From Eledone cirrhosa (lineage: Eukaryota), in contig OZ024764.1 of the NCBI GenBank assembly GCA_964016885.1, forward strand, positions 25,916,001 through 25,980,000: DNA of 64,000 nt, given 5' to 3'. Below are positions 33,004 through 41,432 of the stretch, piece after piece (within the stretch, counting starts at the first letter, position 1; each line of letters starts with the position of its first letter). A program made the translations under genes and the position numbers. The notes beneath the pieces were generated by a model. It was not told where the DNA came from. It did not search any database and was given only the letters and a program-made list of their open reading frames with translations.

Positions 33004-33442
33004 AGTATATACAGTATATATATATATAGTATACAAAAGATGTAGTGGGATAGTGTGTAGTCTTAAGACAAGTCTGTCCAGATAGCTGCGCTGTAGCTTA
33101 TACTTATTGGGACTGTGTTGGCTAGCAGGCCTGTATTTTGGGATCTAGCTGGTCCCTTATGAGGGAGGTCTGGTTAGTTGGCAGCACCATGCCTTACTTG
33201 GGGTATATGTATGTATAGAAATAAGTTATTGTATATATGGTCCATCTATATGTATACATGTATGTTTAAGTATGTGTTTGCATACATATATACATTTTCA
33301 GATGTATACACGTAAGAGTATATATATATTTATATATATATATGTATATTTATAAATATATAAACATACATATGAGTGTGTATATATATATATATTTATA
33401 TATCAATCATCTTTTAATATGTATGTATATATAAAATATATA

Positions 33443-34894: not shown

Positions 34895-35598
<704 letters not shown>

Positions 35599-35921
35599 TC
35601 TTATGTGTATACGTCTGAAAATGTATATATGTATGTAAATATATTTTTATACATACATGTATACATATAGATGGACAGTTATGCACATAAAATATTTTAT
35701 TATATGAGAGTATTGAAGTTTGCTTGAAGCATTGTGGAACAATTGATATATAAATATATATATATATATATATACACACTCATATGTATGTTTATATATA
35801 TATATATATACACACTCATATGTATGTTTATATATATATATACACACTCATATGTATGTTTATATATTTATAAATATACATATATATATAAAGATATATA
35901 TACTCTTACGTGATATATTTT

Positions 35922-35976
35922 TAATTGCTAACAGTGTTTCGTCCACACTAGAAGTGGGACTCTTCAGAGCATAAAG
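35922..35976 (-). ncRNA. Minimal type-I hammerhead ribozyme at the Penelope 3' end
   Basis: Minus strand: ugcu CUGAAGA gucc-cacuucuagugu-ggac GAAA c acu GUU agca; predicted cleavage between 35930 and 35929. Confidence 0.8.
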
Positions 35977-38465
35977 AGTAAATACATAGTATACAAGCAT
36001 TGACAAAGCCAAAACAGAAGAATATATGTGGGGATACCATAAGTTGGGAGGAGTTTAAAGAGTAAAATAAGAAAAGAGTAAAATAAAAATAAAAATAAAA
36101 ATGAAAAATAAGAAATGTTATCACTCTCAGTTGGGCAGGGTTCCGTTAACATACAGCTACATACAAGTATACGCATAAGCATGAGCACCCGCATGCACCT
36201 ACACACAAGCACCCGTATGCAACACATACAGTATACACTAATACAAATAACATATCATAGACGGATGGGCACAAGTTAAGAGATAGAGATAGATAAAAAA
36301 TAGATAAGAGGTAGATAAAAAATAGATAAAAAAAGATAAAAAAATAGATAAGAAATAGATAAAAAATAGATAAAAAATAATAAAATAAAATAAAATAAAA
36401 TAAAGTAAAGTAAAATATACACCAGAAGATAAATAAAACAATACACCAAAAAAAATGGAGTAAAATATACACCATAAAGGAAGGTGTGGGTAAAGATAAG
36501 ACTGGCAAATGCATAAGCTATCAAGCTATGTTCAACAAGTGATATACGTACAATATATAAAATATACAAAAATATATACAAAATTATATATAAAAAATAT
36601 ATATAAAAGAGAAAGAGACGTATATATAAGGATATATATATATATATATATACACATATCAGTCCAAGTAATGCATATTTATAAAAATGTAACTGGGGGT
36701 AAAAAGATGTAATAAGGGTAATCAAGATGGTAATTATTAGGGCATGTAATAATAATATTATTATAAAAATCCTAAGGTGACACTAGTGTTGACTCATGGT
36801 GATATATGGAATATATCAGGAGCACACGAACGCCTTAGGTGTTGCAGTTAGCCGCAGTTCAACAATAGAGTGTTCGAATGAGATTTTTTATTTTTTTATT
36901 TTTTATGAACAGATGCTATGTCCGCACTAGATTGAGTGGACCATTACAATGCAATGGAAACATCCCAGGTTGGACAGTCCCAAAAGTTCACACTCCAAAG
37001 TTCAATCCACAGGTGTGCATTCATAGAGTTGAGCGGTTGGGCAATCCCAAAAAGTTCACACTCCAAAGTTCAATACACTGATGTGCATTCATAGAGTTGA
37101 GCACTCAGGCAAGAATTAATTGGTTAACAAGGTGTATCCGTATCACAAGCAGGAGCATATGCTGGGAAGGTTGCAGGCAAATTCATATACAGCAGCACGA
37201 ACATCAAGAGGCAAATAACTGAGGCGCATATTAGTGAGCAGAAGCAGGCAAGTGCAGGTGGTAAAACACAGTCAGGTGAAGCAGGTTATTATGCATACCA
37301 TTTAATATAAGAAAACTCAACAACGCGCATAACAAATAGCTTCCAAAGCCGATAACCACAAAATCACAACATTGAGCAACAATCCGGCATCGCAAGAATG
37401 TACGCAACATTAGGATTAGTCCAGAGACAGTATATGTATACTTATACATACACACATACATACAAACATGTATATACAGAGACAGTATACATACACACAT
37501 ATACAGAGACAGTATATATATATATATATATACACATACACGTATATACACATAAATATATACATACACACACACACACACACCGCACCGGATACCCAAA
37601 TCTACGCGGATATATTACACAAAATATCTTACCCAGCTAACAAAAGTCAAAAACCCATAACAGTTGCTCTCACTGGTTGCAGATAATGTAGTTTCACAGT
37701 AAATTAGCCAGAGTAATCACGATTAATATTCAAAATAAAACCTTATGAGGAGATGCGTATTCACACGTGTAGTCACCAGATTCAAGTATAAACAAACCAT
37801 TAATAAATACGGAAGGCTATCGGGGCCAAGACGTTATTCTTGGGAGAATAACACAGAGCGTCAATCTATGGAAGGCCAACTATGCCAAAAATACAACACC
37901 GGGCAAAAACATCCCAAAGTCAGCATGTAGACTGTAAACCGCAGAATAGGAGGGTAACACATACATGTACTCCATATCTACTGCCTACGGCGAGATGGCA
38001 CAGGTCAGCTCACAGTGACTGGCTAAATCTCCGTCCCATATGGGCACAGGCCCATTGGTTCATTCCGAGTCAACATGGTAATTTAAATAAACTAAAATAA
38101 GATAAAATGCGAGGGGCAGGTTAAATATAATCAATTGTGCATCTTATAACGCAGTACACACTCTACATAGATGTATTACATCACAACTCATGAGCATACA
38201 AAGGTACAAATCCATACAATACACGTTGGGATAGACCCACCAATGCACAAACACACACACGGTGGCTGGGCAAGTATGGAAGGGTCACATCCACTGTACC
38301 GAACAAGGGTGCTTATTAACATATACACCAACTCACGTATACACCTCGATATCCAAATTCCATATTCACATGCAGGCATACATATACACACAGACACATA
38401 TACAAACAAGACAAACAATAGGAGACAATTACACTAGATTACCCAACTGGAGAATTCTGAAAGTG

Positions 38466-40944
38466 CTAGCTAATAGGCTTAAAGTAAAAGAAAGAGCTTA
38501 ATATCCGGTGGGGGCAAGAGGAAAATATTTCTGACTTTCTATTTAGTAGGGAGCACTTGGCAAATATAATAGAGTGGGATTCCGTAAGGCATAGGTTACA
38601 TACTCTATTATGAGGAGTATATGGATGGGATTTAGCAACTTGCCGCCAAGTGAGGGTGTACTGTGTTCGTGCATTTTTTAAATTGTGGACGTGCGCTGCC
38701 AAGGAGGTAGAATTCTTCAGTTTATTATGTCTAAATGTACACTGGTGGGAGTTAAATCTGGTTTTAAAAGGGGTGGAAGTTGATCCAATATAAGTTTTAG
38801 TGGACGCAGTAGTTACCACATCACACGCATAAACTATGTTTCTAGTAAGGCAGAAACCATTCAGGGGGCAGCCCGAAGCCCTTCTACAGTTACAATTTCT
38901 GGTGATGCTATTATCTAAATGATCACCAGCTTGCTGATCACGGGTGTTCAGGCTACCTCTGTCAACTCCAATGTTTTCCCCTAGGCGTAAGGTGTCGAGG
39001 CCTTCCTTAATTTTCTTATTATTGGTATTGGCTAGATGAGAGGCCAGATTTTGGGTTGTAGAATACGAGAGTTTAACCACATTCTTATTGAGGATAGAAT
39101 GGTACCTATTACCAGGAGGGAAGTTCCTTTCTAACACAGAGAAGAAGGCCCTAGGAATATTCGTAGCCACTTCGGAGTTAAATGGGGGGGTTAAAATATG
39201 TATTCAATCTTCTTCTATTCTTTTTATCTTTATTATTATTACCATTATTATTATTACCATTATTATTATTATTAATTCCATTGCTAAGGTTACTATGTTC
39301 ACCTAATCTATGCGGGGAGCTAAGAGGCCTACCATTACTGTTACTTAGTCCATTGGTACCCTGTTGGTGCATTTTACCGGCGTTCAAAACCCTCATGTTC
39401 GAAACACCTCTATTACCAATGGACATATTATGTGTTATAACACCTCTATTACCAATGGACATATTATGTGTTATAACAACACTGGTAGAGCTACTATTTG
39501 GACTATTATTTCCCTGGGCATAATGTAATTTGTCCCTAAAGCCGGATCTAGCTAAGGCATCATTATAATAATCAGCCTGCGAGTTAAACGCCTCTTCGCT
39601 ATGTGAGAGTGAACTTATTCTGTTAGAGACCCCCTTCAATATACCACTGATGACCGACCTAGGGTGGTTGGAGTTAGTATTCACATAAGTCAGCAATTCA
39701 TTAGGCTTATGGTACGGTGTGTACGTATGGTTACCTAAGTCCAATGTAACATCAAGGAAGTTGACAGTCCTATCATTTATATCCATAGTAATGGACAGAT
39801 TGAAGGTTTTAAAGAATTTATACAGCTTTTTCCTAATGCGCACTATATTATACTTGCTAGCCTCTATGGAGAGTAGGGCATCATCACGGTACAACCCACC
39901 CCTAAGGAATGGGAAGTTACTATGTAGTTCAGTAAGGAGGTAGAGCCCAACTAAGTCGGTGACCTGGGCAGAATCACTTGACCCCATAGTAATGTCAAAA
40001 TTATCCGGTGTGTTTTTTCTCGTCCATAAATTATCCTCAAACATAATGATGGTTTTACGTGCAGCGAGAACGATATCTATCTGTGGCCGTGTAATGACCC
40101 CTCTCTGCATGGCTAGGATAAGGGCCTTATTGAGGATGATAGGAGATATAGATGTATAATAAGCATCAATATCAAATTGGATAAACCTAAGCGAATCACG
40201 CTTACAATCCGTAGAAAACCACCTAATGACTTCACTAGTATTACCCCAAAGCTCAAGGAATGTTTTTTCTTTAACCAGGGGAATTACGCTATCTAAGATT
40301 CTCTTACTTATAATCCCCAAATCAGACTTGGAGGGGCAGATAAGCCTAACTGAGGGGCTACTAATAAAGTTTTCCTTATGGTCCTTAAGGGTGAATCTAG
40401 GCTGTTTGGGGTAATATGGTTGAGTGTGTTTATCTAGACCTAATTTTACTACTATGTTATACCCCTCTAGATTAATATTATCTAAATTACTCTGCGTTGT
40501 TTTTTTGTAGTTCCTATGTAGTTCATTATAAATGAAGCCACGATAAGTTTTATAATCCATACTATACAGGTTTTTAGTTTTGTCGGAAGGGACCAGAATA
40601 GATTTATTATCCTTAAAGTCCTTAACGATAGAACCGAGTTTACTCTGAAACTTATTGGTACATCTAGATTTTTTATACCTAATATTCCTGACAAGGGATA
40701 ACAGCTCACTTTCGAAATTATCCAATAGGCTATTGTGTGGGGGGCTCCTATATGTCTTAAAGCCATAATTATTAAAACTACACTTATCATCAGGGTTATC
40801 ATACTTCTTATCAAAATGGAACGCACGCCACCGAACACGTTTTACAAAGGAATTTATGCTAGTTATAAGCAATTTCTCATATGAAATTTTAGAAGGGGTG
40901 GGAATATTCTTCAAAGAAATGGGTAAGTATGTCTTTGTTAGCAA
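38466..40944 (-). CDS. Naiad-type PLE polyprotein (RT plus GIY-YIG endonuclease), split by one extra base in a C7 run at 39184-39190
   Basis: SLKNIPTPS..RVRWRAFHF, LVPSDKTKNLY, TLKDHKENF, FDIDAYY, TMGSSD, GLYRDD, VNFLDVTLDL, CNCRRASGCPLNGFCL, IVY..YIGST..FKTRFNSH, CNLCLTE, LNRKSE..CPH; deleting one C gives the continuous YFNPPFNSEVATNI. Confidence 0.88.
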
Positions 40945-41299
40945 TTAAAGATATACCTATGTTCTAAGCGCTCTTTGTTGTTAATTGTATTACGGCTCTG
41001 ACCTCTGACATTGAGCTAACCATATACTGCCTATTTGATAAGTGGAGTGTTACACACTCCCAATTCTCTCCCTTATATATACTCTTACGTGTATATTTTA
41101 TTATGTATTTATATACATACAATGAATTATTAACTTATTAAAAACTACAATATATGATTAAATTATGTTTGATTTTAATGTCTATGAAAGAAAATTATTA
41201 TAATTGATCTAAATTAATGTTAAAATAAATTTTTAAAAATCTAAATAAACAGTTTATTTGTTAACATAACCGTCGTGATAATATTGGTTCCTTATATAG

Positions 41300-41432
41300 G
41301 CATAAGACCAACAATTTTGGGGCAGGAGAAAGTAGATTAAATCAACACCAGTGCATTACTGGTACTTTATTTTCTCGACCTAGTAAGGATAAAAGGCAAA
41401 GTTAACCTCGGAGGGATTTGAACTCAGATCAT
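41300..41432 (-). mobile_element. Partial tRNA-derived SINE
   Basis: ctggtactttattttctcgacc..aaggcaaagttaacctcggagggatttgaactcagatc. Confidence 0.7.

Follow-up and report, generated by a model that had tools for sequence, protein, structure and literature searches.

Described insertions of Penelope-like elements (PLEs) consist of arms joined head to head, with a target-site duplication (TSD), a tail on one arm and microhomology at the junctions (Arkhipova et al., 2013, PMC3846280). The one-sided tail and head-to-head arms (PMC3846280; PMC8557442) are already known, as are hammerhead ribozymes in the pseudo-long terminal repeats, or pLTRs (PMC4209133; PMC7229834; bioRxiv 10.64898/2026.07.22.740005). 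A tail of 31 bp is reported in PMC3846280, which favours self-priming on an antisense template, and one of 30-40 bp in PMC8557442. With these systems we compare a head-to-head PLE at 35895 to 41091 of a 64,000-nt stretch of the Eledone cirrhosa genome (the window; GCA_964016885.1, contig OZ024764.1, positions 25,916,001 to 25,980,000 of the forward strand; coordinates below are window positions). In its family and relatives, two copies of a hairpin motif probably fix the two sites at which reverse transcription starts.

L1 twin priming offers one parallel: two target strands prime on one RNA, leaving a head-to-head junction with microhomology and a short overlap, and the second primer lands at variable sites. 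The window family differs in that its two sites are normally fixed and its arms usually overlap widely. A nearer parallel is PAc, a Poseidon-clade element of Anolis, whose reverse transcriptase (RT) begins copying in vitro at two internal positions, one at each boundary of the tail (Frangieh et al., 2024, PMC11167929). PAc needs RNA up to nucleotide 172 of the open reading frame (ORF) and extends both strands, and a dimer is predicted; hammerhead cleavage is not needed in vitro, no reads end at the cut, and the starts were placed in an AC-rich stem-loop inside the ORF (PMC11167929). The two systems would share two start sites with the tail between them, AT-rich targets, extension of both strands, a predicted dimer and a dispensable hammerhead. 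They differ in where the sites lie: inside the ORF in PAc, but in the non-coding leader in the window family, 52-111 nt apart and with the same motif behind each. The main text on PAc names no duplicated motif, and the literature searched (excluding subscription papers, Repbase notes, figures and the PAc GenBank supplement) holds no description of a duplicated start-site motif.

Twin hairpins and the ends of family copies

We scored 40 of 1126 candidates from a genome search. The initial annotation had taken 40940-41073 for the 5' leader of the RNA, inverted in the window copy, and had proposed to ask of other copies whether this segment follows the hammerhead in sense and leads into the ORF. 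It follows the hammerhead in sense in 29/29 other fetched loci, and in 26 of 30 ATG-bearing loci (e.g. L025) a tandem junction places this tail before a 79-nt leader and then the ATG; start contexts read ATG CTA ACA in 59/63 cases. The inversion is thus borne out, but the idea of a leader flipped at its own break is not, since the segment is the standard long 3' tail and has the same end base as other long copies. Counted from the hammerhead cut, this long end lies at +134 and runs into (TA)n, and a second standard, short end lies at +50; among 18 copies with the order pLTR-ORF-pLTR, 12 have the long end and 6 the short one. The loci G000 C1002, C15:42262516-42267651 and C4:58598751-58604651 each contain two or three pLTR-leader junctions in succession, forming genomic multimers; such multimers could serve as templates with an ORF upstream of hairpin 2, described below. 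In the window, the tail comprises the following features:

40936 to 41073, plus strand: second arm, the family's usual long 3' tail from -4 to +134, stopping at the point after which tandem-junction copies continue with hairpin 2
40993 to 41017, plus strand: hairpin 1, inside the tail, with the short end (+50, position 40989) just 5' of it

The motif GCUC-[hairpin]-UH-GAGC occurs twice between the hammerhead and the AUG in three host families (A, B and C). Its GCUC/GAGC stem encloses an inner stem-loop and carries a bulge of 2 nt on the 3' side, and in the native RNA the same motif stands behind both standard ends. Hairpin 2 lies just past the long end, outside long-ended copies, and is seen only at tandem junctions; after hairpin 1, its presence was predicted in other families and then found in two further host families. 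Rfam has no family matching the twin hairpins.

The ends of the copies follow these motifs. Samples of 3' ends anchored upstream of both standard ends gave 88 arms from 90 loci (L055 and L059 unclassified), of which 2 read through and 86 terminate. All but one of the terminated arms (85/86) end between -2 and 10 nt 5' of a hairpin, 48 at hairpin 1 and 37 at hairpin 2 (12 and 15 in family A, 17 and 12 in B, 19 and 10 in C), and tail length tracks the hairpin spacing (92, 100 and 111 nt). The +50 site resembles (TA)n less closely than do U/A patches at +12 and +83, which are hardly used; only 3 family-A arms end between +5 and +28. Every classifiable inverted pair combines one long and one short end (28/28; 9 in A, 7 in B and 12 in C), in samples that were not selected by end type and from which seven loose-pattern rows classed as 'other' were dropped. 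One family-B end (L091:1515-1845) lies directly before sequence that resembles a histone H4 coding region.

A metagenome scan extended the comparison to at least 78 loci from marine relatives with 33-42% RT identity; the motif and end counts that follow are among the matches listed. A hammerhead core lies upstream of 40 ORF starts; two strict motifs were counted at 29 of these, one at 7 and none at 4, and two strict motifs are present in 20/28 non-redundant metagenome leaders. Under a relaxed definition and with the three host families included, at least two motifs occur in 29/31 non-redundant leaders, compared with 0.4% of shuffled leaders. Hairpin 1 covaries: its first three inner pairs are kept in 31/31, 26/31 and 25/29 leaders with U-A/C-G/G-C swaps, levels reached by 0 of 5000 shuffles each. 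Variant outer stems are also seen, namely UCUC/GAGA and GAGCUC (L224, L262 and L273) and GCCC/GGGC at the start of the published Hydra-1_Crog consensus, which suggests from the sequences at hand that the outer stem can covary too.

Metagenome 3' ends could be mapped in 16 cases, of which 10 lie 0-4 nt before a motif and one more falls at a contig end. Among published Hydra sequences, the Hydra-1_Ajap consensus has its first base 2 nt ahead of a pair of motifs, and in two further consensuses a motif stands shortly before the end (supplement of PMC8557442). The twin hairpins are thus visible in published Hydra consensus DNA, yet the text of that supplement gives 0 matches for 'hairpin' and section 11 of PMC8557442 is silent on them.

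The head-to-head junction and the hammerhead cut

The window copy consists of two arms joined 5' to 5', with the long-ended arm reaching back to about -4 and the body arm running from +16 to the start codon. The features at its ends and junction are:

35895 to 35912, plus strand: left copy of the TSD, TA-rich, with the motif also in a local repeat
35913 to 35929, minus strand: 3' end of the body arm, +1 to +16 past the hammerhead cut, a non-standard end (family standard +50)
35924 to 35972, minus strand: minimal type I hammerhead, with a CUGAAGA/GAAA core, 4-bp stem I, 2-bp stem III and triplet GUU
40936 to 40943, no strand: 8-nt microhomology at the head-to-head junction, the start-codon context (minus) equalling -4 to +4 around the cut (plus)
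41074 to 41091, plus strand: right copy of the TSD, whose first 7 nt also match native RNA immediately 5' of hairpin 2

The 18-nt direct repeat reported as a TSD is present at both ends when the window is compared with itself. Its status as a TSD is only probable, because the 18-mer sits within a local repeat (it recurs inverted at 33309-33326 and at 17/18 at 35590) and an empty-site paralog was looked for and none found. The stretch 33250-33420 is an inverted relative of the left flank, and the right flank (41098-41430) is a high-copy repeat. A hammerhead 17 nt from the 3' boundary had also been proposed, and we agree: a type I minimal form with conserved core and stems I-III aligns to Rfam RF00163 (18.4 bits, E 1.7, below the gathering score of 34; copy L025 gives the same match). 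The predicted cut falls between 35930 and 35929, 17 nt from the TSD. The minimum-free-energy structure of the monomeric hammerhead RNA does not form the active fold.

The 19/20 inverted match between 40936-40955 and minus 35933-35914 exists as first annotated. Compared base by base, it arises where the element's two arms overlap and is no independent feature. Positions -4 to +4 around the cut, read as reverse complement, equal the eight bases that follow the A of ATG. At the single mismatch of the 19/20 match, the left end looks like the target sequence beyond the TSD, which suggests that a target strand primed at the left end. The twin priming invoked in the initial annotation fits this arm geometry.

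With up to one mismatch allowed, the window junction occurs nowhere else in the genome. A search for a non-T base before +1 gave 87 hits, all with C (the GUC subfamily) and none with A or G (0/87). A 5'-junction pattern covering -27 to +28 returned 24 rows, reduced to 23 events after merging L070 and L071; it missed the window copy itself, so the survey is incomplete, and one junction (L075) was set to -4 by eye where the script gave +3. None of the 23 events starts at -2 to +5, against 2.9 expected, five start at -8 to -4, and clustering is absent (p 0.79). Retention of 4-8 nt 5' of the cut at a junction implies that the template was read through the hammerhead. The start codon was also considered as a stall hotspot and rejected, with 3 hits only, each carrying a non-native base 41 nt before the anchor and one being the window itself.

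No RNA data set is among the sequencing runs listed as matches. Contigs of four sequencing runs from one study break at 40935-40936 (hammerhead sequence) and at 40943 (leader sequence); among the matches listed from those four runs none bridges the window junction, whose absence is not thereby shown. A miniature insertion (L093:1500-1712) has the window's combination of ends, one arm at +17 and the other at the long end. The window junction itself is an ordinary one-off.

Clade and architecture of the window element

The element had been called Naiad-type. Naiads have an N-terminal endonuclease, CxC and DKA and lack a canonical hammerhead (PMC8557442), and the window element shows the opposite arrangement: its RT lies in the 5' frame and its GIY-YIG nuclease is C-terminal, DKT stands at residue 121 and the hammerhead core is present. 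A preference for (TA)n and tandem and inverted structure are features that it has in common with Naiads. The Hydra clade is defined by an RT with C-terminal GIY-YIG and a set of motifs, with Hydra-1_Obim and Hydra-1_Ajap as examples (Craig et al., 2021, PMC8557442), and by domain order and motifs the window element is a Hydra-clade PLE. A single ORF with RT followed by C-terminal GIY-YIG is recovered once one frameshift is taken to account for the window's two frames. The RWK-type motif is RWR at residue 38 and DKG is replaced by the DKT already mentioned; the linker is CxCX5C, CCHH is absent, and CxxC and CxH flank a conserved E and N. The hammerhead near the 3' end and the insertion into (TA)n agree as well. 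Hydra elements are generally short (<3 kb), as a tendency and not a diagnostic trait (PMC8557442), whereas the window element measures about 5.2 kb with a 2.5-kb 3' untranslated region (UTR); the unit from ATG to the next hammerhead is 4.3-5.7 kb because of this long 3' UTR. The N-terminus of the window protein reads like published Hydra proteins (supplement of PMC8557442), and protein P0028 is 49% identical over 30% of the query, with an opening stretch that resembles Hydra-1_Obim. A Pfam search of the window proteins gave no match for the RT and only a weak one for GIY-YIG. The remaining features of the element are:

35973 to 38465, minus strand: 3' UTR (about 2.5 kb) that includes simple repeats and a tandem duplication of 68 nt
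38466 to 39203, minus strand: C-terminal frame of 245 aa, with CxCx5C linker, GIY-YIG nuclease without CCHH, CxxC and CxH (PF01541, E 0.01)
39178 to 40944, minus strand: N-terminal frame of 588 aa, with KNIP, RWR, DKT, RT with YRDD and an Asn-rich linker

The 588-aa frame lacks the A of its ATG and overlaps the 245-aa frame, with a frame shift in a C run near 39190; the initial description of an ORF without ATG and with a stop immediately upstream agrees with these reading frames. A single 829-aa ORF is present in 5/20 fetched ATG-bearing copies and is frameshifted in the window copy. Uninterrupted 829-aa ORFs are found in sister-subfamily copies L303, L305, L306, L310 and L319, which are 86-88% identical to the window ORF, and a family with such intact copies may still be active. 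Between RT and endonuclease lie an Asn-rich low-complexity stretch and an in-frame 36-nt tandem duplication (window 39209-39295 and 39403-39474); the Asn-rich stretch resembles the N-rich inserts of rotifer Penelope elements (PMC3846280).

A proposed route of integration and its alternatives

Head-to-head insertion by priming on both target strands is likely, and we think it probable that in this Hydra-clade family the twin hairpins fix the two RT start sites. The RT/endonuclease, possibly as a dimer, would bind each hairpin, and a nicked (TA)n strand would prime on the U/A-rich bases directly 5' of it, one site per strand. The outcome would be head-to-head arms with a one-sided tail, the 'tail' being the stretch between the hairpins. 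In the window copy, priming of one strand would have taken place at the usual long site (+134), the other strand would have used a rare U/A patch (+16), and the two cDNAs would have been joined through 8 complementary bases. The template was most likely read through an uncut or re-ligated hammerhead. The end of the long arm lies 12-20 nt beyond the start of the second primer, and this may account for its closeness to the cut without cleavage. The self-priming model of PMC3846280 fits the window-family data less well than does the use of two primers on sense RNA, each at a marked site of its own. Should the long start be positioned by hairpin 2, then long-ended full-length templates would have had an ORF upstream of the leader, and would have been multimers or circles; genome sequence fits either, and multimers exist in the genome.

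Several observations speak against this account. The role of the hairpins is deduced from their position and conservation, and the window's own body arm does not terminate at a hairpin. Two long+long pairs (L014 and L022/L023) occur among copies chosen for their long ends. L198 stops 55 nt short of the expected end, and TA homology of up to 9 nt blurs the ends at hairpin 2. Five of the 16 mappable metagenome 3' ends do not fit, with distances including 12, 27, 43 and 65 nt. Two leaders depart from the double motif, L254 with a truncated leader and L267 representing a family with a single motif. The inner pairs of hairpin 2 are kept less well than those of hairpin 1 (27/29, 16/29 and 12/21, reached by 1008, 414 and 62 of 5000 shuffles), and the shuffles ignore relatedness. 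The outer GCUC/GAGC stem is nearly invariant (55/62), and G-U counts do not settle whether RNA or cDNA folds.

Two alternatives centre on the cut site. The initial annotation saw at the inner junction the footprint of a template whose 5' end was made by hammerhead self-cleavage; 40940-41073 would then be run-off cDNA primed in the 5' pLTR and joined to the body cDNA. The microhomology of -4 to +4 does include +1, and the tail does precede leader and ATG in 26/30 loci, with hairpin 2 only at such junctions. The same microhomology spans the cut, so that a chance match of four further bases is required; and the uniqueness of the junction, the absence of A or G before +1, the 0/23 starts at the cut among the surveyed junctions and the five junctions that retain bases 5' of it all run counter to cleavage. 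These counts rule out a self-cleavage footprint as a family trait; for the window copy we consider such a template doubtful and its footprint unlikely, and the junction's closeness to the ribozyme cut is probably a coincidence. The other proposal was an antisense gate, in which the start-codon region pairs across the cut and controls cleavage or circularisation. Complementarity is 8/8 in the window subfamily (28/37 rows, some loci counted twice), but the GUC subfamily reaches 7/8 and families B and C only 4-6/8, with no compensatory change, whereas the neighbouring helix between the tail and the bases before the AUG keeps 6/6 in 35/37 rows. Inverted matches somewhere in the body exist for 13/131 tail 8-mers, and the 20-nt form of the match, on whose conservation the initial annotation had staked both of its models, is found only in the window copy. 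With covariation absent, the gate is highly improbable. The neighbouring helix is predicted in L025:1580-1720 and in junction copies of families A, B and C, and in the window its tail side corresponds to:

41026 to 41031, plus strand: hexamer with predicted pairing, in junction copies, to the six nucleotides that precede the AUG; one difference between families is compensatory

In a folded leader this helix could hide the start codon or close a domain around hairpin 2.

The other two alternatives concern the ends. Hairpin 2 may instead mark the 5' end of a unit RNA and the long end its 3' end, with tandem junctions arising by template jumps and the hairpins serving transcription, translation or packaging. 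Some full-length copies begin right at hairpin 2 (L111 and L254), and the 5' leader contains both hairpins as well as a helix that ends at the AUG. The short end, however, is beyond doubt an internal site, and the motif stands 0-5 nt from it just as it does from the long end; 26/30 ATG copies carry an upstream pLTR, and the anole PLE starts internally at both tail boundaries (PMC11167929); we judge this explanation unlikely. The ends might also be set solely by homology of U/A-rich RNA to the (TA)n target, since all ends abut TA repeats and the rare +16/+17 ends (the window and L093) lie at such a patch. Against this, the +50 site takes 12/27 family-A ends without a TATA or ATAT 4-mer, while the richer +12 and +83 sites are almost unused, and homology by itself is scarcely credible as the cause.

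Priming on both strands at the twin hairpins may be taken a step further, to a reading that we put forward tentatively, as a serious possibility: the two bulged hairpins would form a bipartite element for RNA recognition in which each hairpin binds one subunit of a dimeric RT-endonuclease, so that priming on the two strands of the target is programmed at internal sites, with twin priming as the normal route of integration. On this reading, hairpin 2 is never copied at the long end, so full-length copies would come from circular or multimeric RNA.

PLEs are the closest relatives of telomerase RT, and the choice of start site, the one-sided tail and the inverted arms have been a long-standing question. 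Earlier in vitro work found two internal starts and left an RNA signal as a hypothesis; a duplicated, clade-wide motif at a fixed distance from both ends is a concrete candidate for point mutants. The motif predicts element ends from sequence, which is useful for annotation, and it implies a template that runs past the long end. If true, the bipartite element would give the sister group of telomerase an RNA element that positions the template.

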